Sequence record: MK327931.1 | Strand: one strand, 5' to 3' | Length of the DNA stretch: 64,000 nucleotides | From: Escherichia phage vB_EcoM_G17 | Shown here: in pieces, positions 43,763-62,398 of the stretch | Numbering within the stretch: the first letter of the stretch is position 1 | Layout: the number at the start of each line of letters is the position of its first letter | Made by a program: the position numbers and the translations under genes | Notes under the pieces: generated by a model | Told to the model about the DNA's origin: nothing | Databases searched by the model: none | What the model saw: only the letters and a program-made list of their open reading frames with translations

Positions 43763-44164
43763 TTACAGTCCTAAGATAGTGCGTGCTTCGTTACGTTCCG
43801 TACACAGCTGCATGATGTGAGCAAGTAAGTCCTTGCTAATGTATCCGGTGTTCATAGCTTCACGAATAGATACATCATACGCACCGAACCCCGTGCGAAC
43901 GATACGCACATCATTCAGGTTAGTATTATAGATACCGCCGAGATCAACGGCTTCGAATACTACATCAACAGAATATTCATTGTTGCCATCGTGGAAGTTT
44001 TCCAGTGCAATAGTATTGGATACCGCCCAACGTTTGCAGTTTCCAATGATGCGGCACTGTTCCGGTTGGATAGTACCATTACTTACAGCGTACTCCAGTG
44101 CATCTTTACCAAAAGTCCGAGCCAGTACTAAAACGTCAGCGAAGGAATTGATTGAGAAGGTCAT
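43763..44164 (-). CDS. hypothetical protein
   Basis: trimmed to MTFSINSF after AAGGAG (the track N-term runs through the leader hairpin). Confidence 0.75.
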   Translation of the reverse strand: MTFSINSFADVLVLARTFGKDALEYAVSNGTIQPEQCRIIGNCKRWAVSNTIALENFHDGNNEYSVDVVFEAVDLGGIYNTNLNDVRIVRTGFGAYDVSIREAMNTGYISKDLLAHIMQLCTERNEARTILGL

Positions 44165-44184
44165 GATAAAACTCCTTAATTTAG

Positions 44185-44246
44185 GAGGGAGAACCATTTC
44201 CCCCTCTCTATGTAAAACATTATACTTGATTCTAAGTACTATGCAA
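44185..44246 (-). promoter_or_regulatory. promoter + 5' leader hairpin cassette
   Basis: -35 TTGCAT 44241-46, 16-nt spacer, -10 TATAAT 44219-24; hairpin GAGGGGGAA/UUCUCCCUC 44185-44206. Confidence 0.75.
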
Positions 44247-44253
44247 GTACTTT

Positions 44254-44586
44254 TTACATTTTAATACCTGGATTCAGGTAGCGGTGAGATCCATATTCTG
44301 GATCGGTTTCGGTCCAGTACTGTAAATCGATAGTACCTTTCGCGTTAATCTTGTCTACCAGCTTATTCATCTTAGTGTATACTACGTCAGCATCGATGCG
44401 TTTAAAGCCAGTAGCTTTAGTGAAGTAGTAGTGATTTGCTTCACTATCATTAAGGATATACCGAGCACCGTTTGCAGTCTGTGCGATAATGATTGAGTAT
44501 TCTACTTCCCGATCCAGACCGTCGATGAATACAGATGAAACATTGGTACGGATGAAAGCTTTAACGATAGCGATTGAAGTACTCAT
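44254..44586 (-). CDS. hypothetical protein
   Basis: 110-aa ORF, AGGAG SD. Confidence 0.75.
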   Translation of the reverse strand: MSTSIAIVKAFIRTNVSSVFIDGLDREVEYSIIIAQTANGARYILNDSEANHYYFTKATGFKRIDADVVYTKMNKLVDKINAKGTIDLQYWTETDPEYGSHRYLNPGIKM

Positions 44587-44639
44587 TTTGAATCTCCTAA
44601 CTTTGTGGGCCGTCGCACCATTGCCGCCCTACGAGATAC

Positions 44640-44668
44640 ATTATTGCAGTACTGATATACTTTGTCAA
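44640..44668 (-). promoter_or_regulatory. sigma70-like promoter
   Basis: -35 TTGACA 44663-68, 17-nt spacer, -10 AATAAT 44640-45. Confidence 0.65.
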
Positions 44669-44694
44669 TACTTTTTTTATTAATAGTTTTCACC

Positions 44695-44702
44695 CCACCA
44701 GC
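44695..44702 (-). other. Chi octamer GCTGGTGG on minus strand (intergenic)
   Basis: plus strand reads CCACCAGC. Confidence 0.85.
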
Positions 44703-44737
44703 AGATAGTTACTCACCGTTATTAACTATATATTTTA

Positions 44738-44814
44738 GATACACTCCTGCACCCAGTGGGCTAGTTTTTGTCTATGCGTATATAATAGCAAAGGGACTGA
44801 CCGGAGTCAATCCC
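44738..44814 (-). repeat. terminator/promoter/box module, copy 1
   Basis: hairpin GGGACTGAC..GTCAATCCC 44793-814 carrying -35 TTGACT 44805-10; 17-nt spacer; -10 TATTAT 44782-87; box AGCCCACTGGGTGCAGGAGTGTATC 44738-62. Confidence 0.65.
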
Positions 44815-44832
44815 TTTTTTTATTCTTTTTTG

Positions 44833-45033
44833 TTAGATGATTCTCCAATCTTCTACGATCATGGTAAGATAACGGACCATCGATTCAAGTGATTCGAATT
44901 CCCGATAGTCTGCCGCTCCACCAGCGGTACAAGTACAGCCGATTAAACCATTTTGTAATTCCTTAATCTGTACATCGATAAGGTTGGCTTTAGCTTCTTT
45001 CAGTACTTCAACCAGGGCGATAGCGATAGACAT
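44833..45033 (-). CDS. hypothetical small protein
   Basis: 66-aa ORF; contains a coding Chi at 44918-25. Confidence 0.7.
   Translation of the reverse strand: MSIAIALVEVLKEAKANLIDVQIKELQNGLIGCTCTAGGAADYREFESLESMVRYLTMIVEDWRII
44918..44925 (-). other. Chi octamer on minus strand (coding, A-G-G codons)
   Basis: plus strand reads CCACCAGC. Confidence 0.85.
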
Positions 45034-45056
45034 AATGTTTTACTCCAAACTATTGA

Positions 45057-45116
45057 CGGGAGAACTATTCCCCCGCTCTATGTAAAACATTATACATTAC
45101 TGGTTAGTACTGTCAA
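45057..45116 (-). promoter_or_regulatory. promoter + 5' leader hairpin cassette
   Basis: -35 TTGACA 45111-16, 16-nt spacer, -10 TATAAT 45089-94; hairpin CGGGAGAAC..TTCCCCCG 45057-75. Confidence 0.75.
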
Positions 45117-45122
45117 ATAGTT

Positions 45123-45380
45123 TTATGAAATATCTTCGATGTAGTCGGCCCATTTCATTTTTTCAGTACTGTCAATGGCTACCGGATTATTTGGATCAAA
45201 CCATTCACCATTCCCGCAATACATACCCACGGCAACGGTTTTATATCCATCCTGTGCAGTACTCCACGACATAGCACGATAGATATGGCCTTTAACTGGT
45301 TGCAATACTGGTAATGTTTTATGGTCTTCTACGTAGGCCATAGCTTGAGGATTTACCCGATATTGTGTGAACTGTTCCAT
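45123..45380 (-). CDS. hypothetical small protein
   Basis: 85-aa ORF. Confidence 0.7.
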   Translation of the reverse strand: MEQFTQYRVNPQAMAYVEDHKTLPVLQPVKGHIYRAMSWSTAQDGYKTVAVGMYCGNGEWFDPNNPVAIDSTEKMKWADYIEDIS

Positions 45381-45408
45381 TATGTTTCCCCTTGTAGTTA
45401 GTAAAGTT

Positions 45409-45437
45409 ATTACATCAGTACTATCAAGCTATGTCAA
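45409..45437 (-). promoter_or_regulatory. sigma70-like promoter
   Basis: -35 TTGACA 45432-37, 17-nt spacer, -10 TGTAAT 45409-14. Confidence 0.6.
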
Positions 45438-45456
45438 TAGTACTGAAATAAAACTT

Positions 45457-45681
45457 TTAGATTAGATTATTGATGCCGTTGATGGTAGACTCGCTTTCTT
45501 CTTTCTCCCATTGGCGGTAGTACTTCCATGCTTCATGATATGTGGCGATTAGTTCATCTTTTTGATCCTGAGTACATGCCAGTACTGAATCACGGTGAGC
45601 GGTTTTATAGATAGAATCGAATGATTTCTTCTCTTCTGCCAGGTTAGCTACTTCCCGCATCAGTTCATCAAAGTTAGCCAT
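45457..45681 (-). CDS. hypothetical small protein
   Basis: 74-aa ORF, AGGAG SD. Confidence 0.7.
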   Translation of the reverse strand: MANFDELMREVANLAEEKKSFDSIYKTAHRDSVLACTQDQKDELIATYHEAWKYYRQWEKEESESTINGINNLI

Positions 45682-45699
45682 TTTATTACTCCTTTTAGT

Positions 45700-45756
45700 G
45701 GGGGAGGATATCTCCCCCTATGCAAAACATTATACTTTGTTTTAGTTATTATGCAA
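45700..45756 (-). promoter_or_regulatory. promoter + 5' leader hairpin cassette
   Basis: -35 TTGCAT 45751-56, 16-nt spacer, -10 TATAAT 45729-34; hairpin GGGGGAG-gatat-CTCCCCC 45700-17. Confidence 0.75.
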
Positions 45757-46012
45757 GTACTTTTTTCATATAAAGATTATATTCTACACCGCCGTAACCT
45801 TCTACGATGATATGTTTTGCGTTATCACGTTTGCACATAGTGAAACCGTTGTTGATGTGTTCTGCATTTTCCAGGGCGACATCACCGATAGCGGCACATA
45901 CGGCACTAATAACAGTATTCCGCAAAGTACTGGTATCATTAGCGGTCATAGTAGTTTGCAGTACTACGTTGTCGTATACGTGTGCATTGATAGTGATTTC
46001 GATAGTGTTCAT
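45749..46012 (-). CDS. hypothetical small protein
   Basis: 87-aa ORF. Confidence 0.7.
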   Translation of the reverse strand: MNTIEITINAHVYDNVVLQTTMTANDTSTLRNTVISAVCAAIGDVALENAEHINNGFTMCKRDNAKHIIVEGYGGVEYNLYMKKVLA

Positions 46013-46030
46013 GGTGTATCTCCTGGACTG

Positions 46031-46091
46031 GCGGGAGAACTATTCCCCCGCTCTATGTAAAACATTATACGTTAATCTAACTACAATGCAA
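46031..46091 (-). promoter_or_regulatory. promoter + 5' leader hairpin cassette
   Basis: -35 TTGCAT 46086-91, 16-nt spacer, -10 TATAAT 46064-69; hairpin 46031-51. Confidence 0.75.
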
Positions 46092-46098
46092 GTACTTT

Positions 46099-46290
46099 TT
46101 AAATTTTATTTCCGATATAGTCCGGTCTATTCTTTTCGGTCATACGCTTTGCTAATGTTTGCATATGGCTTATTGCGTTTAATGTGTCTTCCTCCAGGGA
46201 TGAATCAACATAATCAGGATCATTCTTCACCTTGCAATGATTATGATAGCGTAGTACTGCCAGTACTTTTTTAACTTCTTCTACTGTCAT
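46099..46290 (-). CDS. hypothetical small protein
   Basis: 63-aa ORF, ATGA-coupled to 46287..46559. Confidence 0.65.
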   Translation of the reverse strand: MTVEEVKKVLAVLRYHNHCKVKNDPDYVDSSLEEDTLNAISHMQTLAKRMTEKNRPDYIGNKI

Positions 46291-46559
46291 AATAAGTACC
46301 CCACTTCGTTAGCTTTCAGGTTAGTATCAATCATCAGTGGATTTTTGTAGTTCACAAAACGATTAGTTTTCTCGATAGCGAATCCCATATAATCCAGCTT
46401 ACTAACAGTACATTCATTCTTAAAAACTTCTTTCGCTGCATCGATGGCTGATTGCATGGATAACCGACCATCTAAATTAATGTTTCCAAATGATCCACCA
46501 GCAGAAGTAGGATTACCGTTCATATCTTTAATGATCATAGTAGCGGAGTAGCTGGACAT
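46287..46559 (-). CDS. hypothetical small protein
   Basis: 90-aa ORF; contains a coding Chi at 46495-502. Confidence 0.7.
   Translation of the reverse strand: MSSYSATMIIKDMNGNPTSAGGSFGNINLDGRLSMQSAIDAAKEVFKNECTVSKLDYMGFAIEKTNRFVNYKNPLMIDTNLKANEVGYLL
46495..46502 (-). other. Chi octamer on minus strand (coding, A-G-G codons)
   Basis: plus strand reads CCACCAGC. Confidence 0.85.
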
Positions 46560-46581
46560 AATTTTGTTTCCTTTTAGTATC

Positions 46582-46640
46582 GGGGAGAACTATTCTCCCC
46601 TTGATGTAAACTATTATACAGTACTGATATACTTTGTCAA
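46582..46640 (-). promoter_or_regulatory. promoter + 5' leader hairpin cassette
   Basis: -35 TTGACA 46635-40, 16-nt spacer, TGnTATAAT -10 at 46613-18; perfect hairpin GGGGAGAA-cta-TTCTCCCC 46582-600. Confidence 0.8.
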
Positions 46641-46646
46641 ATACTT

Positions 46647-47054
46647 TTATTCGCCCATATAGATTAAGTTATCATCGCCTACATAGGGATCGCAAACGTT
46701 GATTTCTTCGCAGTACTTCGTGAATACATCGCCATAGTGACCTAAACCACGATCCCAAAAACCAGTTCCGTGACCTTCGCGGGTAAGGAACAGATCATGA
46801 CCAGCTTGCTCATAACCGTAATCAATAAACATACCGCGAACTACTTCCAGATCATTACCGTGTTTCTCAATGAAGCGAGAACATGCAATCACCGCCGCTT
46901 GACGTGCTTCATCAGATAACTCATAATCTTCCAGGTAATCGCCGTTATCATTATGTACAGTACTGAATTGCATAGCTTCAATGTAAGCTACAACCATTGC
47001 AGCATGATTTTTATCGTTAGTGATGTTCCGAGCGAGATTAGTAGTAGTAGACAT
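46647..47054 (-). CDS. hypothetical protein
   Basis: 135-aa ORF; motif AGHDLFLTREGHGTGFWDRG, family not identified. Confidence 0.75.
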   Translation of the reverse strand: MSTTTNLARNITNDKNHAAMVVAYIEAMQFSTVHNDNGDYLEDYELSDEARQAAVIACSRFIEKHGNDLEVVRGMFIDYGYEQAGHDLFLTREGHGTGFWDRGLGHYGDVFTKYCEEINVCDPYVGDDNLIYMGE

Positions 47055-47075
47055 GATTTTATTCCTTATTGTATT

Positions 47076-47134
47076 GGGGAGAACTATTCTCCCCTTGATG
47101 TAAACTATTATACAGTACTGATATACTTTGTCAA
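47076..47134 (-). promoter_or_regulatory. promoter + 5' leader hairpin cassette
   Basis: near-identical copy of 46582-46640: -35 TTGACA 47129-34, -10 TATAAT 47107-12, hairpin 47076-94. Confidence 0.8.
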
Positions 47135-47137
47135 TAC

Positions 47138-47359
47138 TTAATTACGTTTAAAATGATATGTGCCTTTATCATCCTGTACGCCCCACACTGATTTACCATC
47201 AACACCAGTGAAACCGGATTGTAATTCAATATGGAAACCATTATTATCAACTACAAAAACTTTTTTATTTTCATCCCGATAACATTGATATTCTGAATCA
47301 ACATTAAAGGCCGCATCATTCAGAAGATTGGAAGCGTAAATGCAAGTCATTGTAGTCAT
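47138..47359 (-). CDS. hypothetical small protein
   Basis: trimmed to MTTMTCIY (the track N-term crosses hairpin and promoter). Confidence 0.7.
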   Translation of the reverse strand: MTTMTCIYASNLLNDAAFNVDSEYQCYRDENKKVFVVDNNGFHIELQSGFTGVDGKSVWGVQDDKGTYHFKRN

Positions 47360-47379
47360 GATTTTATTCCTTATTACCA

Positions 47380-47439
47380 GGGAGAACCATTTCCCCCTCT
47401 CTATGTAAAACATTATACTTGATTCTAAGTACAATGCAA
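47380..47439 (-). promoter_or_regulatory. promoter + 5' leader hairpin cassette
   Basis: -35 TTGCAT 47434-39, 16-nt spacer, -10 TATAAT 47412-17; hairpin 47380-97; near-identical to 44185-44246. Confidence 0.75.
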
Positions 47440-47484
47440 GTACTTTTTATCAAATAGTTTTCAGTACTGAATACTTATATAATA

Positions 47485-47566
47485 GATACACTTCCGCACC
47501 CTATGGGTCAGTGAGTTATCTCTCAATGAATATATAATAGCAAAGGGACTGACCGGAGTCAATCCC
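47485..47566 (-). repeat. terminator/promoter/box module, copy 2
   Basis: hairpin 47545-66 with -35 TTGACT 47557-62; 17-nt spacer; -10 TATTAT 47534-39; box GACCCATAGGGTGCGGAAGTGTATC 47485-509. Confidence 0.65.
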
Positions 47567-47580
47567 TTTTTTAATCTTTT

Positions 47581-48165
47581 TTATCGTGTTACCTTACTTG
47601 CTTCTACATCACGCTTTTTATAGTACTGATTCCAGATATTGCGGGTTAAACCGTAATCAAGTACTTTAATAAGGCCATTACGATCCTGGCCGATATTCTG
47701 TTTTCTGATATCTCTTATCGTTAGTGTTGATAATGTATCATCAACGTGTTGTAGTGCATCAGCAAAGCGGTGCTGGCGTTCAATGGCATTACGTTTAATA
47801 TTGTACTTTAATTCATTGCACGCGTTTACGTGCTTTACACTGCCTTTACTTGCAGTACTCAACCGATCCATAACGATAAACATATTATCAGGATCGCATA
47901 AATGCATATGCACCTTTGCAAAGTACTGTTTCAATTGAGGGCGGTCATAATCTAAAAAATTCCATACCTTACATTCAGTTTCATTTTGTTCTACACCCGC
48001 ATCACAATTCGCGACCTTGATCACTAACCGATCATTTAAAGCGAATACAATACGGGAAGAACCCGCACCGATGATCTCCAGACCAGCTAACCGACAAGCT
48101 GAAAGGATCTCTTTGTTGGTTTCCATTTCTGACAGGGTACGGATGAATTTAGTATAATTACGCAT
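47581..48165 (-). CDS. protein kinase-like protein (eukaryotic-like kinase fold)
   Basis: trimmed to MRNYTKF after AAGGAGAA; GAGSSRIVF (Gly loop), VIKV (Lys), RDIRKQNIG (D-x4-N catalytic loop), LDYG (DFG-like). Confidence 0.6.
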   Translation of the reverse strand: MRNYTKFIRTLSEMETNKEILSACRLAGLEIIGAGSSRIVFALNDRLVIKVANCDAGVEQNETECKVWNFLDYDRPQLKQYFAKVHMHLCDPDNMFIVMDRLSTASKGSVKHVNACNELKYNIKRNAIERQHRFADALQHVDDTLSTLTIRDIRKQNIGQDRNGLIKVLDYGLTRNIWNQYYKKRDVEASKVTR

Positions 48166-48196
48166 TGCATGTTCTCCTTGAGTTAATGAAACTATC

Positions 48197-48439
48197 TTAC
48201 AGTACTTTACTATCAATGGCAACTACTTTTTTAACATTAACGGCGTGGATCACCTCCTTAGTGTTTTTAGTACTGAATACTTTCGCCGCCCCATTCACGA
48301 CCGTGATACGATAGCGACCATTAACATCAACCATATTAATAAAGTCCGGCGTGCTGAATGGTGTTGTTTTACATTTGAGTACTGTTAACAATTCCACCAG
48401 CGATGTAGTTTCTTTGATACGTTTTTCTAAAGTAATCAT
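48197..48439 (-). CDS. hypothetical small protein
   Basis: 80-aa ORF; contains a coding Chi at 48394-401. Confidence 0.7.
   Translation of the reverse strand: MITLEKRIKETTSLVELLTVLKCKTTPFSTPDFINMVDVNGRYRITVVNGAAKVFSTKNTKEVIHAVNVKKVVAIDSKVL
48394..48401 (-). other. Chi octamer on minus strand (coding)
   Basis: plus strand reads CCACCAGC. Confidence 0.85.
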
Positions 48440-48468
48440 TTTGTTTTTCCCCGTGTTGGTATGTACAT

Positions 48469-48497
48469 ATAGTACTAAAACATTTGAGTACTGTCAA
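48469..48497 (-). promoter_or_regulatory. sigma70-like promoter
   Basis: -35 TTGACA 48492-97, 17-nt spacer, -10 TACTAT 48469-74. Confidence 0.65.
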
Positions 48498-48716
48498 TTA
48501 GATAATATTATATTTCTTAAAATAAAATGCGTCCTGTGTTGGTTGATACTCAATGCCATTGCCGTTATTGACTTCAACTAATAAACCTTTGTCAATAAGT
48601 TTTTTAATAGTACGATACCCTTGTTGAAAATTGGTAAAATGTGAATCATTACGAAAGGTATAACCGTGCTTAACTGCTTCATCAATAGTTTTCTTTTCGA
48701 TTTTAGATAATTTCAT
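48498..48716 (-). CDS. hypothetical small protein (possible winged-helix-like)
   Basis: trimmed to MKLSKIEKK; YRTIKKLIDKGLLVEV helix-like segment, weak. Confidence 0.65.
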   Translation of the reverse strand: MKLSKIEKKTIDEAVKHGYTFRNDSHFTNFQQGYRTIKKLIDKGLLVEVNNGNGIEYQPTQDAFYFKKYNII

Positions 48717-48744
48717 TTTGTTTCTCCCGTGTTGGTATATGTAC

Positions 48745-48773
48745 ATAGTACTAAAACATTTGAGTACTGTCAA
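48745..48773 (-). promoter_or_regulatory. sigma70-like promoter (paralog of 48469-48497)
   Basis: -35 TTGACA 48768-73, 17-nt spacer, -10 TACTAT 48745-50. Confidence 0.65.
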
Positions 48774-49024
48774 CGTGATATTAGTTTTATTTTCTTATTA
48801 TATTGTTGGTGTTCATATAGGTTTATCTTTCCTGTGTTCTCAATTACTATTCTGTTGTTAGTGTCCACATCGATTACACGCAGTTTCCCGTTGCTTAACT
48901 TCCTTGGTAATAGGTTACCATTAATAAACTCATTAGCAAGCTGTACGGCCTTTGTGATGATTCTCTTCGGTGCTTTATAGTGTACCCGTAAGATGTTATC
49001 TTTATATAGTTGAACCTTAATCAT
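48770..49024 (-). CDS. hypothetical small protein
   Basis: 84-aa ORF. Confidence 0.65.
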   Translation of the reverse strand: MIKVQLYKDNILRVHYKAPKRIITKAVQLANEFINGNLLPRKLSNGKLRVIDVDTNNRIVIENTGKINLYEHQQYNKKIKLISR

Positions 49025-49038
49025 TTTGTTTGTCCTAT

Positions 49039-49063
49039 AAAAAAGGCGGGAACTGATCCCGCC
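49039..49063 (-). terminator. rho-independent terminator
   Basis: GGCGGGA-5nt-TCCCGCC followed by T6 on minus strand after 49086..49490. Confidence 0.8.
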
Positions 49064-49085
49064 GTGTTGTTAGTACTGCAAGTTA

Positions 49086-56787: not shown

Positions 56788-56832
56788 CTTTAAATCCTCA
56801 GTTAGTTAAGGTGTCTCGCCTTGATGTAATTA

Positions 56833-56860: not shown

Positions 56861-56925
56861 GTACTTTTTATTACTTTTTGCAAAATACTTTAAACGCTCT
56901 CAATCGCATTCTAACGACCTTAACT

Positions 56926-56933
56926 CCACCAGC
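56926..56933 (-). other. Chi octamer on minus strand (intergenic)
   Basis: plus strand reads CCACCAGC. Confidence 0.85.
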
Positions 56934-57002
56934 TAGGGCGATGTATCAGATAATCAGTTTAATGCGTTAGGCGGTGCTAGTGGACTGGAATACTATAGAC
57001 AC

Positions 57003-57029
57003 AAAAAAGCCCACTGTTTAAGGTGGGCT
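57003..57029 (-). terminator. rho-independent terminator (copy 1 of an identical ~40-bp repeat)
   Basis: AGCCCAC-8nt-GTGGGCT followed by T6 on minus strand after 57051..57533. Confidence 0.85.
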
Positions 57030-57050
57030 AGTGATTCAGTACTTTAATTT

Positions 57051-57533
57051 TTATGCTTCAACTTTGCGATGAGCTTCGATCCATTCCTCGCGAGTCATAC
57101 CGCTTTCTTTGATAGCGTCCAGTACTACCGCAATGCAGTTACCGCGTACAGGAATCAAATGTTCTTCCCCGTTATCAAGTACTACCGCTACACGTTCCTG
57201 AATCCATTTTTTAGGCTTAGATTCCGGCTTATCTTCACCATACTTAACCGCCAGGGCTTTATGTGCCATTTCCACAACCACTTCCAGATCCAATCCAGAC
57301 ACTGCCGCCTGAATACTTTCAATTGTTGCTTGTAGTTCTGCTTCACGGGCTTTTTTCTGTTCTTCCAGTTCTGCTACCTTTTTGGCTTGCAGTTCTTTCG
57401 CAGTACTGTACGCAATGTTAAAATTGTTGCGTACCGCTTTCATGGTATCGCTATCCAGTTCAGCCAGGATTTCTGCCGCTACGTTAGTTTCATTTGCTAC
57501 CAGTGCTTTGATGAATGATTTTACATTAGCCAT
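57051..57533 (-). CDS. hypothetical protein with a central coiled-coil-like segment
   Basis: trimmed to MANVKSF; KELQAKKVAELEEQKKAREAELQATIESIQ. Confidence 0.75.
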   Translation of the reverse strand: MANVKSFIKALVANETNVAAEILAELDSDTMKAVRNNFNIAYSTAKELQAKKVAELEEQKKAREAELQATIESIQAAVSGLDLEVVVEMAHKALAVKYGEDKPESKPKKWIQERVAVVLDNGEEHLIPVRGNCIAVVLDAIKESGMTREEWIEAHRKVEA

Positions 57534-57589
57534 TTTATAAATCCTCAATTAAAGTTTAGTTTACGTTAGATAGTGTATCAAAGTTTTCT

Positions 57590-57647
57590 CGACGTGTCCA
57601 GTTTTTCGTTCGACTTACTGGCGGTCTACTTAGTGCTCCCCGTCTTG
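57590..57647 (-). promoter_or_regulatory. conserved leader element, diverged copy 3
   Basis: shares GTTTTTCG, CTTACT, CTACTTA and CCCCGTCTTGATG blocks with 50606-50674 and 60594-60664. Confidence 0.35.
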
Positions 57648-57656
57648 ATGTAATAC

Positions 57657-57684
57657 ATTCTACGCTTTTCTGTGGTAATGTCAA
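57657..57684 (-). promoter_or_regulatory. sigma70-like promoter
   Basis: -35 TTGACA 57679-84, 16-nt spacer, -10 TAGAAT 57657-62. Confidence 0.65.
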
Positions 57685-57738
57685 CTACTTTTTTAAAACT
57701 ATTTTTAAAGTATCTCAGTACTACGATACTACAAAAAC

Positions 57739-57765
57739 AAAAAAGCCCACTGTTTAAGGTGGGCT
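57739..57765 (-). terminator. rho-independent terminator (copy 2 of an identical repeat)
   Basis: same AGCCCAC..GTGGGCT stem followed by T6 after 57783..58082. Confidence 0.85.
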
Positions 57766-57782
57766 AGTGATTCAGTACTAGA

Positions 57783-58082
57783 TTATAAACAGTTAATTAC
57801 TCCGGTGTGCGTTACTTTCTCAGTATCCATAACCGTGACCGATCCACGCTTAGTACTGGCATCATAATAAATTGTGGTGCTACCGTTTTCGTCTTCTTCA
57901 TGGAACGGGCCGTTTTTAAATGCTTCCGGCTGGATCTCTAAATCCTTTAATACAATCTCGCCAGTTCTTTCATCGGTCATTGCAACAGTGCACTGAATGA
58001 ATTTTTCATTACTTACATCTAATGACGCATTAACAGCGAAAGAGGAAACAGATAAAGCCAGGGCGATGATTGCAATTTTCAT
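57783..58082 (-). CDS. secreted/periplasmic small protein
   Basis: N-term signal peptide MKIAIIALALSVSSFAVNA. Confidence 0.75.
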   Translation of the reverse strand: MKIAIIALALSVSSFAVNASLDVSNEKFIQCTVAMTDERTGEIVLKDLEIQPEAFKNGPFHEEDENGSTTIYYDASTKRGSVTVMDTEKVTHTGVINCL

Positions 58083-58102
58083 TTGATTATCCTTAGTTAC
58101 CA

Positions 58103-58161
58103 GGGGGAACCGCTCCCCCTTGCTATGTAAAATATTATACAGTACTAAAAACTAATTGCAA
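58103..58161 (-). promoter_or_regulatory. promoter + 5' leader hairpin cassette
   Basis: -35 TTGCAA 58156-61, 16-nt spacer, -10 TATAAT 58134-39; hairpin GGGGGAA-ccg-CTCCCCC 58103-19. Confidence 0.75.
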
Positions 58162-58166
58162 GTACT

Positions 58167-58403
58167 TTATGATTTTTTATAAAACATTTCGGCAGTGATA
58201 TTTTTACCCGTTGGCTGTACTTTATCCAGAATTTTTTGATGCCCTGGCCGTCCAAATGAATATGATCCGTAAACCGTAAACCAGTAGTTACCCTCAGTGT
58301 TTACATGTACAGCACAATAGGGAACGCCCCGCGATTCATCACTAGTAAAGTGTGCTACCGTTCCCGTTACATTCGAAGTCGTTGATTTGATTTGTTCAAG
58401 CAT
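58167..58403 (-). CDS. hypothetical small protein
   Basis: 78-aa ORF. Confidence 0.7.
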   Translation of the reverse strand: MLEQIKSTTSNVTGTVAHFTSDESRGVPYCAVHVNTEGNYWFTVYGSYSFGRPGHQKILDKVQPTGKNITAEMFYKKS

Positions 58404-58424
58404 TTTCTTATTCCTTAGTTACCA

Positions 58425-58477
58425 GGGGAACCGCTCCCCTATGCAAAACATTATACGCGTTTAAAAACTAATAGCAA
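58425..58477 (-). promoter_or_regulatory. promoter + 5' leader hairpin cassette
   Basis: -35 TTGCTA 58472-77, 16-nt spacer, -10 TATAAT 58450-55; hairpin 58425-39. Confidence 0.7.
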
Positions 58478-58510
58478 GTATTTTAATAAAAAGTATTTGG
58501 AAAATAATTG

Positions 58511-58539
58511 TTGACAAGTGCATCCAGTACTGGCATAAT
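58511..58539 (+). promoter_or_regulatory. plus-strand sigma70 promoter, divergent from 58450-58477
   Basis: -35 TTGACA 58511-16, 17-nt spacer, -10 CATAAT 58534-39. Confidence 0.65.
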
Positions 58540-58545
58540 TACTAC

Positions 58546-58654
58546 ATCAAGACGAAACAGTCACTAACCCACCGGGTGCATAGATCCGTCTATTAAATGA
58601 TTCAGTACTGAAAAAGTAACGGGGAGTTATTATCTCCCCGCGTTGTTATTTTGT
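58546..58654 (+). ncRNA. candidate ~110-nt plus-strand small RNA
   Basis: own promoter; hairpin GAC-gaaaca-GTC; box AACCCACCGGGTGCATAG 58566-83; ATAGA-tccg-TCTAT; terminal hairpin CGGGGAG-7nt-CTCCCCG 58620-40 followed by a U-rich tail; no ORF. Confidence 0.4.
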
Positions 58655-58867
58655 AAGGTATAAACAGAAGTCACCTTTATTTGCTACGCCGCCAGTGTAA
58701 CGCGATGAATAGTTAGAAATATCTTGTACTTCTGCTATTACCAGTGTATCATCATTCATTTCGTCGCAGAAGCAAACGGCTGGATCTTTTACGCCGATAT
58801 TGTCGGCATGTTCCCGCATAGATTTAACCAGTGCTTCCAGTTGAGAAAGAGTAGTGATATTAGCCAT
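58646..58867 (-). CDS. hypothetical small protein
   Basis: trimmed to MANITTLSQ. Confidence 0.7.
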   Translation of the reverse strand: MANITTLSQLEALVKSMREHADNIGVKDPAVCFCDEMNDDTLVIAEVQDISNYSSRYTGGVANKGDFCLYLTK

Positions 58868-58886
58868 TGTATTTTCCTCATTACCA

Positions 58887-58945
58887 GGGAGAACCATTTC
58901 TCCCCTCTATGTAAACTATTATACAGTACTGAAAACTAATTGCAA
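58887..58945 (-). promoter_or_regulatory. promoter + 5' leader hairpin cassette
   Basis: -35 TTGCAA 58940-45, 16-nt spacer, -10 TATAAT 58918-23; hairpin 58887-904. Confidence 0.75.
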
Positions 58946-58953
58946 GTACTTTT

Positions 58954-59157
58954 TTAATTTAATTGCTTTAAAACATACTCAAAGACACCACGCACATCAT
59001 TGATCATCGCCTGGCGGTTAGCAGGTAACGCATCAGGATCGCCACTATCCCAGGCATTGATAAAACTCCCCAAATCATGATAGATTTTATTCTGTAAGCC
59101 GATTAACTGTAATTCTTTTTCTTCAAGCTCTTTGATGCGGTCGATTAAATCACTCAT
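58954..59157 (-). CDS. hypothetical small protein
   Basis: trimmed to MSDLIDRIKE after GAGGA. Confidence 0.65.
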   Translation of the reverse strand: MSDLIDRIKELEEKELQLIGLQNKIYHDLGSFINAWDSGDPDALPANRQAMINDVRGVFEYVLKQLN

Positions 59158-59174
59158 TAGATAATCCTCAGTAC

Positions 59175-59459
59175 TTAACTGTAAGATCCGCAACGGTCGC
59201 AGTAGTGCCCGTCCTCGTCATCGTCAACGAATTGACCGACGAAATGATCTACTTTCGCTTTCAGGTTATTATAATCGTTTTCTACTTCATTTAAACGCTT
59301 CTGGTAGTATTCCAGTGCTTTAAGATATGCCGCATCAGCAGTTTTCTCCTGCATAGCTAAATTCATGCCACGCGTTTCATCGTACAGCCAAAAACCATCG
59401 GTGCACTGGCTAATAGATAATGACTTGCTTAGTACTGTATAGTTAATTACTTTACCCAT
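59175..59459 (-). CDS. hypothetical small protein
   Basis: 94-aa ORF; C-term HYCDRCGSYS. Confidence 0.7.
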   Translation of the reverse strand: MGKVINYTVLSKSLSISQCTDGFWLYDETRGMNLAMQEKTADAAYLKALEYYQKRLNEVENDYNNLKAKVDHFVGQFVDDDEDGHYCDRCGSYS

Positions 59460-59477
59460 TAGATAATCCTCAGTAAA

Positions 59478-59537
59478 GGCGGGAACTATTCCCCGCCTCG
59501 ATATAAAGTATTATACGTTAATCTAACTACAATGCAA
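59478..59537 (-). promoter_or_regulatory. promoter + 5' leader hairpin cassette
   Basis: -35 TTGCAT 59532-37, 16-nt spacer, -10 TATAAT 59510-15; hairpin GGCGGGAA-cta-TTCCCCGCC 59478-97. Confidence 0.75.
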
Positions 59538-59551
59538 GTACTTTTTAAATT

Positions 59552-59818
59552 TTATAATCCTTTTACTGCATCAGGTGCGACTACTCCATCAATGTATTGA
59601 ACATCGTTTTCAACTTCACGGGCGGCATCATTCAGCAGATCAAAATTAAATTCCATTTCTTCCAGATCATCGAAATCAGGCTCATAACCATTAATTGTTG
59701 AATAAGTCCAAGTACCTTTTTCATAAGTTACGACACTTACATCAGGGAAGAAATCTTGCACATGATCCATCGCATCCCGAACCAATTGATGTGCAGTTGT
59801 GATATTTAAAGTTTTCAT
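59552..59818 (-). CDS. hypothetical small protein
   Basis: 88-aa ORF. Confidence 0.7.
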   Translation of the reverse strand: MKTLNITTAHQLVRDAMDHVQDFFPDVSVVTYEKGTWTYSTINGYEPDFDDLEEMEFNFDLLNDAAREVENDVQYIDGVVAPDAVKGL

Positions 59819-59839
59819 TTTGTTGCCCTTTTAGTGTGA

Positions 59840-59899
59840 GCGGGGAACCACTCCCCGCCTCGATGTAAAGTATTATACGCTTTTAAACTTAGTTTGCAA
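59840..59899 (-). promoter_or_regulatory. promoter + 5' leader hairpin cassette
   Basis: -35 TTGCAA 59894-99, 16-nt spacer, -10 TATAAT 59872-77; hairpin GCGGGGAA-cca-CTCCCCGC 59840-58. Confidence 0.75.
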
Positions 59900-59911
59900 G
59901 TACTTTTTAAA

Positions 59912-60523
59912 TTAATATGCGATTGATTCTACTACGTCATCAATAACATTGAATTGATATTCGTTACCCTCAATCAGTGCCGTAATGTTTTCAGTAGTGA
60001 ATTGATCCTCATATGCATTCTCTAAATCACGGTACAACTTGCGGGATAATTCACGAATAGTTTCAGTGAGTAGTTCCTCAAGCTCATTAACTAACGTTTC
60101 TTGTTTTGCGGTTAAATCAGTGTAAGCCGATTCAATGTACCCGCTTACAGTATTCTCATGCGAGTAGTGGGAGTGAGAACGCTTTACACTCATCGCCAAA
60201 TCATCTTCATTCAGCAGGTGACGGATTGAGCGATACTTAGTTAATGCTCTTACCTTGCGTAAAAACTTCACTGCGTCAACGTGGTCAGTACTGATTGATG
60301 CACCGTCACCCTGGGACCAAAAACCACTGAATTGTATTTCAGCTTCATTAATGCCATATTCCGGTAGTACTGTTTCTTTATAGTATTCAATTTCACTTTC
60401 AGAAAAATAATTGTCGTTTGAGTTTTTTTCACGTTCCCGAACCAGTTCGATAGCTGACGTTTTTTGTTCTGCGTTCAATTCAGAAAAATCCATAACGAAA
60501 GTAGTAGTAGTGATAGTTTTCAT
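59912..60523 (-). CDS. hypothetical protein
   Basis: 203-aa ORF; motif FSGFWSQGDGASIS, family not identified. Confidence 0.75.
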   Translation of the reverse strand: MKTITTTTFVMDFSELNAEQKTSAIELVREREKNSNDNYFSESEIEYYKETVLPEYGINEAEIQFSGFWSQGDGASISTDHVDAVKFLRKVRALTKYRSIRHLLNEDDLAMSVKRSHSHYSHENTVSGYIESAYTDLTAKQETLVNELEELLTETIRELSRKLYRDLENAYEDQFTTENITALIEGNEYQFNVIDDVVESIAY

Positions 60524-60555
60524 TTTGTAACCCTCATTCAGTAGTTGATGTAAGT

Positions 60556-60583
60556 ATTATACGCTTTTAAAAACATTTGTCAA
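60556..60583 (-). promoter_or_regulatory. sigma70-like promoter (proximal of a tandem pair)
   Basis: -35 TTGACA 60578-83, 16-nt spacer, -10 TATAAT 60556-61. Confidence 0.7.
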
Positions 60584-60593
60584 ACTATTTTAT

Positions 60594-60664
60594 CAGGGGA
60601 GTTTTTCGTGTGCCTTACTCCTGGGCTACTTAACGGGAAGTTACTTATTTCGTTCCCCGTCCTG
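60594..60664 (-). promoter_or_regulatory. conserved ~70-nt leader element, copy 2
   Basis: near-copy of 50606-50674. Confidence 0.45.
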
Positions 60665-60673
60665 ATGTAAAAC

Positions 60674-60701
60674 ATTATACGCCTTTAAACATAGTTTGCA
60701 A
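60674..60701 (-). promoter_or_regulatory. sigma70-like promoter (distal of a tandem pair)
   Basis: -35 TTGCAA 60696-701, 16-nt spacer, -10 TATAAT 60674-79. Confidence 0.7.
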
Positions 60702-60746
60702 GTACTTTTTAAAAATAGTTTTCAGTACTGAATATTTAAAAAAGTA

Positions 60747-60810
60747 TTGACAGCATTATCAAGTACTGGCATAATATACCCCATGACAACAGCTAACCCA
60801 CCGGGTGCAC
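60747..60810 (+). promoter_or_regulatory. plus-strand promoter followed by a box (plus sense)
   Basis: -35 TTGACA 60747-52, 17-nt spacer, -10 CATAAT 60770-75; box AACCCACCGGGTGCAC 60795-810. Confidence 0.6.
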
Positions 60811-60842
60811 AATTGTAACTATACTAAACTACTTTTTCTATA

Positions 60843-60919
60843 GATACACTCCCGCACCCTATGGGCTACGGCTTATCTGCCAATGAATACATTATGCCAG
60901 TACTGACAAAATAAGTCAA
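60843..60919 (-). promoter_or_regulatory. minus-strand promoter followed by a box, convergent with 60747-60810
   Basis: -35 TTGACT 60914-19, 17-nt spacer, -10 CATAAT 60891-96; box AGCCCATAGGGTGCGGGAGTGTATC 60843-67. Confidence 0.6.
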
Positions 60920-60949
60920 TACCGGCAATTGTAAAGATTTGTAAACTGC

Positions 60950-61180
60950 TTATACTGCAATCGCGTCCAGGCTATAATAATAATAAGTGCCGTATTGGTG
61001 TACTTTATTACCTTTTATTTCAGTACTGAATGAATCCGAACGGTTTGCATATGATGTTAATTTAAAGTACTTTGATTTGCTGATACGTTGCCATACACCG
61101 CAGATCCGCTGTAAGTAAGTAGTTTTATTCGTGGTAGTATCTTTTACAGTTTTAACTTCAGTCATATACATATTAGTCAT
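60950..61180 (-). CDS. hypothetical small protein
   Basis: 76-aa ORF. Confidence 0.7.
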   Translation of the reverse strand: MTNMYMTEVKTVKDTTTNKTTYLQRICGVWQRISKSKYFKLTSYANRSDSFSTEIKGNKVHQYGTYYYYSLDAIAV

Positions 61181-61201
61181 TTTTATTACTCCAGGTTATA
61201 G

Positions 61202-61260
61202 GCGGGAAGAGTTCCCGCTCTCGATGTAAAACATTATACGCCATTAAACATAGTTTGCAA
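61202..61260 (-). promoter_or_regulatory. promoter + 5' leader hairpin cassette
   Basis: -35 TTGCAA 61255-60, 16-nt spacer, -10 TATAAT 61233-38; hairpin GCGGGAA-gag-TTCCCGC 61202-18. Confidence 0.75.
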
Positions 61261-61267
61261 GTACTTT

Positions 61268-61534
61268 TTATTCAAGTACTGCAATCTTTTTAGTACGGTA
61301 CACGGTCACGCGGTTGCCCTTTCGGTCGAGCTTTATTTCTACCACTCGACGCGATACACTATCAGGACTTTTCAACGCCGCTAACCAGTACTGTAATGAT
61401 CTGGCGGTACTACGCTTTATAATGGCCCAACGTTTACCACGTTCCGATTGTACGCCCATATCTTTAAACGTTGCCCCGTCCTGGCGTGCGGCGATCCGAG
61501 CTTGTTCACGCGTCGCAAAATACTTAATATTCAT
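61268..61534 (-). CDS. hypothetical protein, paralog of 49086..49490
   Basis: trimmed to MNIKYFATREQARIAARQDGATFKDMG; C-term DRKGNRVTVYRTKK. Confidence 0.75.
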   Translation of the reverse strand: MNIKYFATREQARIAARQDGATFKDMGVQSERGKRWAIIKRSTARSLQYWLAALKSPDSVSRRVVEIKLDRKGNRVTVYRTKKIAVLE

Positions 61535-61619
61535 GCTGTTGCCCTTATCGTTGGTGTATGAATAAAACACTATTATAAAGTACTATCGCAAAAAATGATA
61601 GTACTTTAAATAAATTCTA

Positions 61620-61859
61620 TTACATTCCAACCATTGCAGCACGGATCGCAGTAGTGCTATATTTGAATCCGTCCGGCGTTTTATCTTGTCCAGTCTGTTC
61701 TAAAAATAACATCATATGACGGGCCGCATCATTACGATTAGTATTGGCGGCAATAAAGTCCTGGGCCAACCGGTATAATGATTCATCGTTATTAATCCAA
61801 AGGCTTACATTCCAATGAGTTTTGTTTTTGTGACCTAAGAACATTTTTGATTTAGCCAT
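61620..61859 (-). CDS. hypothetical small protein
   Basis: trimmed to MAKSKMFLGHK. Confidence 0.7.
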   Translation of the reverse strand: MAKSKMFLGHKNKTHWNVSLWINNDESLYRLAQDFIAANTNRNDAARHMMLFLEQTGQDKTPDGFKYSTTAIRAAMVGM

Positions 61860-61879
61860 TTTTTTAATCCTCTTATATA

Positions 61880-61938
61880 GTGGGGAACTATTCCCCACCT
61901 GATGTAAAACATTATACGCTTTTAAACATAGTTTGCAA
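61880..61938 (-). promoter_or_regulatory. promoter + 5' leader hairpin cassette
   Basis: -35 TTGCAA 61933-38, 16-nt spacer, -10 TATAAT 61911-16; hairpin GTGGGGAA-cta-TTCCCCAC 61880-97. Confidence 0.75.
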
Positions 61939-61952
61939 GTACTTTATTAAAC

Positions 61953-62315
61953 TTATTCGTAAATTTTGCCACTGTCAGCCCATACCAGGAAACGAGGCAT
62001 ATTATCCCATGCATCTTGTTTTAAATTTAAACCGTGTAATACTTCTGTACTTTCCATTCCTGGTACTGGTTTACTATACACCGCGAAATTTTCGCCCATA
62101 TACTGATAAACCATCGTCAAATCACTGGCGATCATCTTATGGATCATCGCATCAAGCATCACGGTAGCGGCGTATTGTTCACGCTTAAGCGGCAACATTG
62201 TAATAAGTTCCCGATAAGCTGAAATGTGAATTTTTACCGTTTCAGCCGGAAGACCTTTCATCTCTTCACGGAAGTTGACCAGGTTAGAAATAATTTTATT
62301 GATTTGGGTCGCCAT
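61953..62315 (-). CDS. hypothetical protein
   Basis: trimmed to MATQINKII. Confidence 0.7.
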   Translation of the reverse strand: MATQINKIISNLVNFREEMKGLPAETVKIHISAYRELITMLPLKREQYAATVMLDAMIHKMIASDLTMVYQYMGENFAVYSKPVPGMESTEVLHGLNLKQDAWDNMPRFLVWADSGKIYE

Positions 62316-62339
62316 CGTATTAATCTCTTTTAAAGTGTA

Positions 62340-62398
62340 GCGGGAAGTGTTCCCGCTCTCGATGTAAAACATTATACGCCTTTAAACATAGTTTGCAA
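62340..62398 (-). promoter_or_regulatory. promoter + 5' leader hairpin cassette (rightmost protein-coding unit)
   Basis: -35 TTGCAA 62393-98, 16-nt spacer, -10 TATAAT 62371-76; hairpin GCGGGAA-gtg-TTCCCGC 62340-56. Confidence 0.75.

Follow-up and report, generated by a model that had tools for sequence, protein, structure and literature searches.

A 64,000-nucleotide (nt) stretch of the genome of Escherichia phage vB_EcoM_G17 (MK327931.1), here called the window, carries an array in which small genes are preceded, time after time, by the same unit of a sigma70 promoter, a G-rich hairpin, a Shine-Dalgarno sequence (SD) and a start codon. The locus raises the question of what kind of element this unit is and what its hairpin does. 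Promoter-early stem-loops (PeSLs) have been described in the T4-like phages RB49, phi1, PST and nt-1 (Arbiol et al. 2010, PMC2839356; Comeau et al. 2014, PMC4122927), and, judged by its sequence, the array matches this known design and is not a new kind of element. An earlier interpretation made from the letters of the window (the sequence-only reading) had recognized the repeated unit, but overlooked both the PeSL precedent and the genomic context described below.

The Array Lies in the Direct Terminal Repeat

Bases 43,763-53,763 of the window are 100% identical to Escherichia phage Sharanji (OR545507), an Asteriusvirus jumbo phage of 350 kb, and ~100 related records match the same bases at 80-97%. 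Sharanji has a direct terminal repeat (DTR) of 20,668 bp, although the paper describing it is silent on promoters and hairpins (PMC11895373), and fEgEco12 has a DTR of 20,993 bp that was confirmed by restriction digests (PMC13070987). In phage vB_Ec-M-J, the annotated DTR comprises positions 1-21,525 of the record (locus L001, 11571-33095), and its boundary maps to window position ~43,334. The addition of 20,668 bp to this position gives the end of the window (~64,000), and therefore the stretch that holds the array is the DTR.

43334-64000, minus strand: direct terminal repeat, putative early-gene module of ~55 small genes (from the identity to Sharanji and the mapping of the vB_Ec-M-J boundary)

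Every gene of the DTR is on the minus strand and reads inward from the genome end. In vB_Ec-M-J, genes are spaced by 60-100 nt inside the annotated DTR, whereas tight overlaps prevail beyond it. The array had been placed at 43,763-62,398; this interval belongs to it, but the array is slightly longer and extends from ~43,334 to the window end, with its last promoter at 63,635. The DTR appears to be organized as an early module of the host-takeover type, and its DNA is probably the first to be expressed in infection.

Promoters and Hairpin Cassettes

A strict scan (TTG-type -35, spacer of 16-18 nt, at least 5/6 matches to TATAAT) identified 42 minus-strand sigma70 promoters at 43.3-64 kb, compared with a mean of 2.0 and a maximum of 5 in shuffled sequences; sites with weaker hexamers raise the total for the DTR to ~45-47. 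The extended -10 motif TATAATNNTTTACAT, with at most one mismatch, has 29 matches against 0.96 expected, and 27 of these are on the minus strand at 44.2-63.6 kb. A generic promoter scanner was less discriminating (97 found, 66 expected), with all of its 12/12 matches on the minus strand of the DTR. The promoters are of two types, AAAAGTACTTGCA(A/T)-N16-TATAAT (type 1) and TTGACA-N16/17-TATAAT (type 2), which the sequence-only reading had described accurately. The motifs that it listed are present as well, but they were quoted in the sense orientation, whereas the genes and cassettes are all on the minus strand. A-tracts lie upstream of the -35 in the DTR promoters, and one to four small genes follow each promoter.

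A leader stem-loop with exact coordinates is found at 24 promoters, and 2-3 more promoters (50689, 60679, 57662) have an expanded loop or a long leader. The stem has 7-9 bp; its 5' arm is rich in G and its 3' arm rich in C, the loop measures 3-5 nt, and the predicted energy is about -10 to -17 kcal/mol. G.U pairs occur in nine or more copies. The first base of the stem lies 9-14 nt past the -10 (mode 12) and its last base 17-23 nt ahead of the ATG, and the distances of the stem to the start site and to the ATG are similarly tight (standard deviations of 2.6 and 2.8 nt). The open reading frames (ORFs) behind the hairpins encode 47-135 amino acids (aa). When leaders are folded from the predicted start, this hairpin alone forms, at -11 to -16 kcal/mol, and the A-rich spacer, the SD and the ATG are unpaired. 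The proposed order of promoter, hairpin, SD and small gene is thus confirmed, with the hairpin located 3' of the predicted start. The earlier count of about 22 hairpin cassettes also holds well against the 24 listed below, and three pairs named as duplicates (46582/47076, 44185/47380, 49903/50172) are indeed near-identical. Among the 45 GC-rich hairpins of the window, 39 are in the DTR and the remaining six are terminator-like; in those near promoters, the purine arm is always 5' on the coding strand.

44162-44246, minus strand: hairpin cassette; -35 TTGCAT 44246; -10 44224-44219; stem-loop 44206-44185 GAGGGGGAA-atgg-TTCTCCCTC (one G.U); ATG 44164
45031-45116, minus strand: hairpin cassette; -35 TTGACA 45116; -10 45094; stem-loop 45075-45057 CGGGGGAA-tag-TTCTCCCG; ATG 45033
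45679-45756, minus strand: hairpin cassette; -10 45734; stem-loop 45718-45700 GGGGGAG-atatc-CTCCCCC; ATG 45681
46010-46091, minus strand: hairpin cassette; -10 46069; stem-loop 46051-46031 GCGGGGGAA-tag-TTCTCCCGC; ATG 46012
46557-46640, minus strand: hairpin cassette; -10 46618; stem-loop 46600-46582 GGGGAGAA-tag-TTCTCCCC; ATG 46559
47052-47134, minus strand: hairpin cassette, near-identical to 46557-46640; stem-loop 47094-47076; ATG 47054
47357-47439, minus strand: hairpin cassette, near-identical to 44162-44246; stem-loop 47398-47379 AGGGGGAA-atgg-TTCTCCCT; ATG 47359
49898-49984, minus strand: hairpin cassette; stem-loop 49942-49924 GAGGGGAA-tgg-TTCCCCTC; ATG 49900
50168-50255, minus strand: hairpin cassette, duplicate of 49898-49984; stem-loop 50213-50194 GAGGGGAA-acgg-TTCCCCTC; ATG 50170
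51486-51565, minus strand: hairpin cassette; stem-loop 51525-51506 GGGGAGAA-atga-TTCTCCCC; ATG 51488
52109-52186, minus strand: hairpin cassette; -10 TATAGT 52163; stem-loop 52147-52129 AGGGGAA-acatc-TTCCCCT; ATG 52117 or 52111
53479-53561, minus strand: hairpin cassette; stem-loop 53521-53502 GGGGAGAA-aaac-TTCTCCCC; ATG 53481
53916-53997, minus strand: hairpin cassette; stem-loop 53956-53938 AGGGGAAA-cgg-TTTCCCCT; ATG 53918
54503-54586, minus strand: hairpin cassette; stem-loop 54545-54524 GGGGGGGAA-atgg-TTCTCCCCT (two G.U); ATG 54505
54734-54815, minus strand: hairpin cassette, query of the cross-phage search; stem-loop 54775-54756 GGGGAGAA-atga-TTCTCCCC; ATG 54736
56249-56328, minus strand: hairpin cassette, present with its gene also in Vequintavirinae A7_1; stem-loop 56288-56269 GGGGAGAA-atgg-TTCTCCCC; ATG 56251
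58080-58161, minus strand: hairpin cassette; stem-loop 58120-58102 AGGGGGAG-cgg-TTCCCCCT (closing G.U); ATG 58082
58401-58477, minus strand: hairpin cassette; -35 TTGCTA; stem-loop 58440-58424 AGGGGAG-cgg-TTCCCCT; ATG 58403
58865-58945, minus strand: hairpin cassette; stem-loop 58905-58886 GGGGAGAA-atgg-TTCTCCCT (G.U); ATG 58867
59457-59537, minus strand: hairpin cassette; stem-loop 59498-59477 AGGCGGGGA-atag-TTCCCGCCT; ATG 59459; replacement breakpoint relative to related phages at 59497
59816-59899, minus strand: hairpin cassette; stem-loop 59858-59840 GCGGGGAG-tgg-TTCCCCGC; ATG 59818; breakpoints relative to related phages at 59834 and 59843
61178-61260, minus strand: hairpin cassette; stem-loop 61218-61202 GCGGGAA-ctc-TTCCCGC; ATG 61180
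61857-61938, minus strand: hairpin cassette; stem-loop 61898-61880 GTGGGGAA-tag-TTCCCCAC; ATG 61859
62313-62398, minus strand: hairpin cassette; stem-loop 62357-62339 AGCGGGAA-cac-TTCCCGCT; ATG 62315

Other promoters of the array lack the hairpin, and the leaders behind them have a predicted structure of 0 kcal/mol. Since a hairpin-less leader (ACAUCAA-CYACUGAAUAAGGAA) equals a hairpin leader minus the stem, the stem behaves like a module whose insertion is optional.

50568-50595, minus strand: consensus promoter without hairpin, leader ACAUCAACCACUGAUAAGGAAAC unstructured (promoter scan, folding)
44640-44668, 49526-49554, 52941-52968, 53212-53240 and 56060-56088, minus strand: further hairpin-less promoters (promoter scan)
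56598-56626, 56833-56860, 60556-60583 and 63608-63635, minus strand: further hairpin-less promoters (promoter scan)

Selection on Stem Pairing

The stem pairing is under selection on the sense strand. This was examined in a set of 50 distinct stems from Sharanji, three other Asteriusviruses, a Salmonella relative and the Klebsiella phage fENko-Kae01. Because MAFFT placed copies with 3-nt and 4-nt loops out of register, loops were padded with N and constant anchors were added; the anchor columns have no pairing partner and contribute nothing to the pair counts. Paired cells amount to 88% in the 50 stems and to 76% in column shuffles, with 0/500 shuffles as high, a measure that is inflated by the choice of stems for their ability to pair. 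Both sides have changed in eight of the nine stem pairs. Double-change cells number 63, compared with 23.6 in shuffles, and the covariation score is 0.435 against 0.208 when shuffled, with every slid control lower, which bears out the compensatory base changes that the sequence-only reading had claimed.

The pairing also shows a strand preference. At stem position 4, GC occurs 34 times, AU 8 times and GU 8 times, while A.C does not occur (0), and over all positions G.T exceeds A.C on the sense strand by 15 to 6. The sense RNA fold is more stable than the antisense fold in 18 of the 24 copies (-13.1 versus -12.0 kcal/mol). Changes between orthologous stems include CG to AT, GC to AT, GU to AU and AU to GU. 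The loops vary in both sequence and length (UAG, AUGG, UGG, ACGG, AUGA, AAAC, CGG, CUC, CAC and ACAUC). Loops of variable length, half-sites that covary and a bias in wobble pairs speak against a double-stranded operator and in favor of a structure that the sense strand forms, in the simplest case as RNA.

Distribution and Exchange of Modules Among Phages

With a 91-nt cassette (54734-54815 region) as query, blastn finds matches in Asteriusvirus, the Munch/7t3/fENko-Kae01 group, Alcyoneusvirus (RaK2, K64-1, Muenster) and Eneladusvirus, as well as unexpected ones in Vequintavirinae-type coliphages of 140-150 kb; no Krischvirus record is among the matches listed for this query. The DTR of fENko-Kae01 has a similar layout, and its stems are mostly GGGGGAA-ACAUC-UUCCCCC with further G.U variants. 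The DTR of Alcyoneusvirus Muenster is also laid out alike; its stems are longer and different, yet they start with GGGRA. In Eneladusvirus the promoters are present, but there are nearly no leader stems. Asteriusvirus, fENko-Kae01, Alcyoneusvirus and Krischvirus phi1 share a conserved stem polarity (G first, C second) and a 5' arm that opens with GGGRA. A pattern scan of IMG/VR for the type-1 promoter (AGTACTTGCA-N16-TATAAT) returned 56 contigs with one match each, which is chance level, and no related contigs. In the literature on Sharanji, Asteriusvirus, fEgEco12, fENko-Kae01 and ph0011, no description of these promoters or hairpins was found.

Vequintavirinae phage A7_1 (OP795442, 145 kb) carries near-identical cassettes at 75-82 kb (locus L062). 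At least 10 small DTR genes from window positions 52999-61862 recur there with 38-87% amino-acid identity and in shuffled order, each behind a similar promoter-hairpin cassette, a pattern that indicates an exchange of whole modules between unrelated coliphages. Comparison with four relatives places breakpoints at 52164-52176 (within a promoter, with overlapping homology), at 58952, 59497, 59834 and 59843 (at hairpins), and at 46646 and 47353.

Variant Leaders, Terminators and Other Features of the Repeat

Three units of the array have a longer structured leader in place of the simple stem-loop.

50596-50711, minus strand: long-leader variant; type-1 promoter, ~85-nt structured leader, G-rich first stem with a 13-nt loop; followed by a second promoter at 50595-50568 and an ATG at 50534
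60584-60701, minus strand: long-leader variant, second copy; followed by the promoter at 60583-60556
57556-57684, minus strand: long-leader variant, diverged third copy; promoter TTGACA-16-TAGAAT

The ~85-nt element (50596-50689, 60584-60679 and 57556-57662, minus strand), a leader or small RNA, is predicted to fold into an outer stem (AUCAGG/CCUGAU) around two hairpins. In A7_1, where it lies beneath an annotated ORF of the opposite strand, it has 91% identity, above that of the shared genes. It has no match in Rfam.

A second repeated unit carries its hairpin over the -35. It looks like a terminator overlapping a promoter, in that the TTGACT -35 of the minus-strand copies lies inside a 12-bp hairpin.

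44700-44817, minus strand: over-the--35 class; 12-bp hairpin spanning the -35 (AAAGGGATTGACTCCGGTCAGTCCCTTT), T-rich tail, TATTAT -10, then conserved CCCAYNGGGTGC
47450-47569, 50720-50838 and 54005-54126, minus strand: further copies of the over-the--35 class
60805-60919, minus strand: hairpin-less relative of the over-the--35 class

The sequence CCCAYNGGGTGC is invariant in this unit and lies ~20-25 nt after the start. Its 3' half can form a weak, G.U-rich hairpin (GGGUGCR-NNNN-YRUAUCU), with GU-to-GC changes among copies. The unit occurs in both orientations, with plus-strand copies at 58511-58650, 60747-60860, 62635-62750 and 62865-62965, while the minus-strand copies split the DTR into blocks of ~3 kb. 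It is conserved in fENko-Kae01 and Muenster and may represent a small RNA or a binding site for a protein.

Canonical intrinsic terminators were found at three positions of the DTR by a terminator scan, which did not call the leader hairpins. All three end in T6, whereas the 9 nt after the leader stems contain a mean of 2 T and form A-rich tails (e.g., ACUAAUUAAGG).

49045-49063, minus strand: canonical intrinsic terminator, GGCGGGATCAGTTCCCGCC then T6 (terminator scan)
57008-57029 and 57744-57765: further canonical terminators (terminator scan)

Some promoters have a palindrome centered on the -10, such as ATGCAGATACT-TTGATAT-AGTGTCTGCAT at 55640-55690 on the minus strand. In fENko-Kae01 (locus L005), promoters of this design lie upstream of 6340, 8650, 11760, 16886 and 17945, with GGGAGTATTATATAATACTCCC as an example. 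This design is shared with the commonest PeSL subclass of phi1.

The palindrome AGTACT occurs 251 times in the whole window against 21 expected, with CAGTACTG found 63 times (0.6 expected) and TCAGTACTGA 17 times (0.07 expected). It forms part of promoters (AAAAGTACTTGCA; CAGTACTGTATAAT), and it is almost lacking from two deserts at 28,000-36,000 and 40,000-44,000. Within genes AGTACT falls in all three frames (59/36/47), so selection acts on DNA. It is also enriched in fENko-Kae01 (129 versus 8), Muenster (173 versus 9) and fHe-Yen9-03 (111 versus 6), but not in A7_1 (6 versus 4), and it is absent from a 35-kb stretch of phi1 (0 versus 11). No paper on AGTACT enrichment was found.

The gene layout switches abruptly at the DTR boundary (43038-43334, leftwards 39,800-43,300). 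Overlapping genes of ~70 aa occupy 39,800-43,300, without intergenic promoters and nearly without AGTACT, and a single promoter (43293-43271) stands at the boundary. At the other end, the terminus-proximal ~1.6 kb (62400-64000) is non-coding, with several promoters on both strands, ~5 copies of the 16-bp unit TCCAGACGTCTAGCCA at 63102-63197 and other short repeats. These repeats may be packaging, end-recognition or replication signals of the physical genome end.

Among 10 larger DTR proteins, only two (52193-52450 and 47581-48222, minus strand) have a Pfam match. The first of these matches is to a C4 zinc finger of DksA/TraR type (E = 1e-11), and the other protein has a weak, sub-threshold match to protein kinases, with relatives annotated as kinase. 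Members of the DksA/TraR family bind RNA polymerase, and a zinc-finger protein together with a kinase-like protein would fit a role in host takeover. A scan of the window for transfer RNA and transfer-messenger RNA genes found none, and Rfam covariance models gave 0 matches at the gathering threshold; at E up to 1 over the DTR, the sole match was Trp_leader, at chance level.

Possible Functions of the Leader Hairpin

Our tentative preference, held with slightly less than even confidence, is that the hairpin serves as a leader stabilizer or insulator that would raise and standardize early expression. Stabilization of the mRNA at its 5' end, as put forward in the sequence-only reading, is a plausible function for a stem in this position. 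Host RNA polymerase would start at the A of a conserved CAT located 7-8 nt after the -10, and the transcript from nt ~+4 to +8 through +25 would fold into the hairpin of 7-9 bp, at -11 to -17 kcal/mol. The A-rich single-stranded spacer, the SD and the ATG, 17-23 nt later, would stay unpaired. Such a hairpin would hinder RppH and RNase E at the 5' end, and would insulate the ribosome-binding site from upstream RNA in primary as well as read-through transcripts, in a manner comparable to the stem-loop, A/U-rich spacer and SD of T7 gene 10. A secondary, evolutionary effect may be that the repeated cassettes act as patches of homology for the duplication, loss, replacement and exchange of promoter-plus-gene modules, even with unrelated coliphages. 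We infer the transcription start, the timing of expression and the stabilizer or insulator function from sequence features. The stem is probably an element of this kind and not a terminator, because it has no U-tract, lies 3' of its own start, and belongs to a phage that uses proper terminators elsewhere.

Several observations weigh against a leader stabilizer or insulator. The promoter geometry, which puts the stem inside the transcript, predicts an unpaired stretch of 3-7 nt (mode 5) 5' of the stem, and work on ompA by Emory, Bouvet and Belasco in 1992 reportedly puts such an overhang at or beyond the length that still protects. Approximately half of the DTR promoters have no hairpin and Eneladusvirus rarely has it, so early expression can do without it. 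The stems of phi1 and RB49 are usually inside the promoter, in the spacer or over the -10, and so cannot be 5' leader elements there; if all PeSLs had one function in common, its target would have to be read-through RNA or DNA. Within the genus, changes in orthologous stems preserve pairing in 9/15 cases and break it in 6/15, and the stems are not clearly more conserved than the coding sequence (2-5% changed in the arms, 4.5% in the coding sequence). Many copies in the covariation set, itself selected for pairing, are also related by duplication.

The authors of the PeSL studies proposed a terminator or attenuator, in which case the stem would stop or damp read-through from upstream promoters, isolate each cassette and keep the genes behind it from being over-expressed. 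One RB49 PeSL stem placed between a promoter and lacZ cut expression about as much as rrnB T1 did (PMC2839356), and the array combines more than 40 strong co-directional promoters with few canonical terminators. Furthermore, the over-the--35 class (44817, 47569, 50838, 54126), with its T-rich tail, scores as terminator-like. However, the 24 leader hairpins lie 3' of their own start, so that a terminator in this position would also end their own transcripts; they have ~2 T in the following 9 nt in a phage that has T6 terminators, and some directly follow terminator-like elements (47439, 53997, 58477), where not much read-through should arrive. For the leader class, an intrinsic terminator was rejected on the grounds that a GC-rich hairpin is present but a U-tract is not, and we regard termination or attenuation by these stems as unlikely. 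A comparably low probability is given to a site of protein recognition or processing, where a phage or host protein bound to the G-rich stem would time shut-off, decay or translation of the early regulon as a whole; such a protein might be an endoribonuclease, an antitermination factor or a repressor of translation. The conserved polarity and GGGRA start across phages whose stems otherwise differ imply more constraint than stability alone needs, and many 5' arms contain GGAG or GAGG. Polarity could also reflect the common descent of oriented cassettes, however, and the loops are conserved in neither sequence nor length, which speaks against a loop-reading protein and led to the rejection of a lambda-type nut/boxB antitermination hairpin. 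Covariation is free at eight of nine positions, stem length and composition shift between genera, and no candidate protein was identified.

An element acting at the level of DNA, either the operator of a dimeric regulator or a recombination site folded as a single strand or cruciform, is very unlikely in our assessment. It would account for replacement and indel breakpoints in or beside hairpins and promoters, sometimes with overlapping homology, and for cassettes and genes held in common with an unrelated phage in shuffled order. Arbiol et al. speculated that GGGG...CCCC is the target of a recombination protein and detected mini-circles (PMC2839356), and palindromes centered on the -10 occur in other promoters of this phage group. 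Yet intergenic breakpoints are expected in any case, given that events disrupting genes are selected out. The spacing of the half-sites varies by 1-2 bp and the half-sites covary, unlike those of a dimeric operator, and the excess of G.T over A.C on the sense strand (15 versus 6; 8 versus 0 at position 4) is not predicted by double-stranded recognition, although it is compatible with the folding of one DNA strand; the dimeric operator was rejected on the variable spacing, the covarying half-sites and this wobble bias. A bolder variant, and a long shot, is that the oriented stem is a recognition site folded from one strand, in the manner of integron attC, for an active exchange that would move promoter-plus-ORFan modules within and between unrelated virulent phages (Rak2-like, Vequintavirinae and T4-like); if true, these phages would draw on one shared set of early genes governed by the same regulatory grammar. 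There is likewise only a slim chance that the element promotes promoter escape, with a purine-rich segment from +4 to +15 that would aid escape from very strong consensus promoters and a C-rich 3' arm that would mask its SD-like purine run and so keep it from attracting ribosomes or pairing with other sequences. The purine-rich arm is always 5' and begins a few nt after the start, many arms contain the SD-like GGAG or GAGG, and the initial transcribed sequence of T5 N25 (AUAAAUUUGAGAGAGGAG), which permits efficient escape, is similarly purine-rich. Against this, consensus promoters of the array also have A/U-rich, non-purine leaders, and in phi1 the G-then-C stem lies upstream of the start. 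Two other candidates were dropped: an N4-type hairpin promoter, as the stem is 3' of a complete sigma70 promoter, and a G-quadruplex, as there are 1-2 G-runs only.

Comparison With Known Systems

The host-takeover module of SPO1 and the pre-early region of T5 are terminal redundancies with many small genes, strong host-type early promoters and strong SDs. The array shares with them the DTR location and the many small genes behind strong host-type promoters and strong SDs. To our knowledge, leader hairpins are not a described feature of these modules, and the hints of host takeover in the array are limited to the DksA/TraR zinc finger and the weak kinase-like protein.

The leader of T7 gene 10 (phi10) begins with a 5' stem-loop, GGGAGACCACAACGGUUUCCC, followed by an A/U-rich spacer and the SD. 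The leaders of the array resemble it in the G-rich 5' arm, the U/C-rich 3' arm, the ~8 bp including G.U, the A/U-rich spacer and the strong SD, but there is no sequence homology between the two. The T7 stem stands at +1 and is transcribed by T7 RNA polymerase, whereas the cassettes would be transcribed by the host sigma70 polymerase with 3-7 unpaired nt first. Placed upstream of an SD, the T7 gene 10 stem-loop raised expression 1.5-3.6-fold and increased the mRNA level (PMC6146998).

Structures at the 5' end impede RppH and the 5' sensor of RNase E (reviewed in PMC3997798). The stabilizers of ompA and papA are, like the hairpins of the array, stem-loops near the mRNA 5' end. Most copies in the array are predicted to have 5 unpaired 5' nt, whereas protection in ompA is said to need very few.

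In the Rak2-like phage CBB, 18 RpoD-like promoters with an UP element were predicted, and no stem-loop is mentioned (PMC5259590). CBB belongs to the same broad phage group and likewise has sigma70-type promoters ahead of short hypothetical early genes, some of them in the terminal repeat.

PeSLs remain the closest counterpart. They consist of an early promoter of sigma70 consensus with an AT-rich upstream region, a stem of G-run, loop and C-run with G.T pairs, and an SD and ATG (PMC2839356), and they flank small ORFans in hyperplastic regions, with five subclasses defined by stem position (PMC2839356; PMC4122927). The authors took the stem-loop for a terminator or attenuator and also for a recombination module (PMC2839356). 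The array resembles them in the sigma70 early promoter, the AT-rich upstream region, the adjacent G-run/C-run stem with G.T, and the SD and ATG of a small ORFan, as well as in the dense repetition within a variable region whose indels and replacements are bounded by the elements. All stem positions in the array fit published subclasses: 24 stems follow the -10, 4-5 span the -35 and one spans the -10. Direct inspection of the phi1 elements places the majority of stems in the spacer or over the -10 and a single one 12 nt downstream of the -10, as in the array; the fENko-Kae01 stem over the -10 (GGGAGTATTATATAATACTCCC) closely resembles phi1 GGGAGTAGTAAGATACTCCC. The two systems differ in that 24 of the ~30 stems of the array are in the transcribed leader, which corresponds to the rarest subclass of phi1, described as lying just before the start site. 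They also differ in the phages that carry them, which here are Rak2-like jumbo phages and a Vequintavirinae coliphage instead of Straboviridae, and in that the array fills a DTR.

The range of PeSL-type cassettes is thus extended from T4-like phages to Rak2-like jumbo phages and a Vequintavirinae coliphage, with cassettes that travel with their small genes between unrelated phages. The array offers a dense natural library of ~45 strong sigma70 promoters, some with a defined leader hairpin and some lacking it, and a ready-made set of parts for expression design. Ultimately, the position of the stem in the leader lets the function of PeSLs be tested directly, as a stabilizer or insulator, a terminator, or a recombination site.

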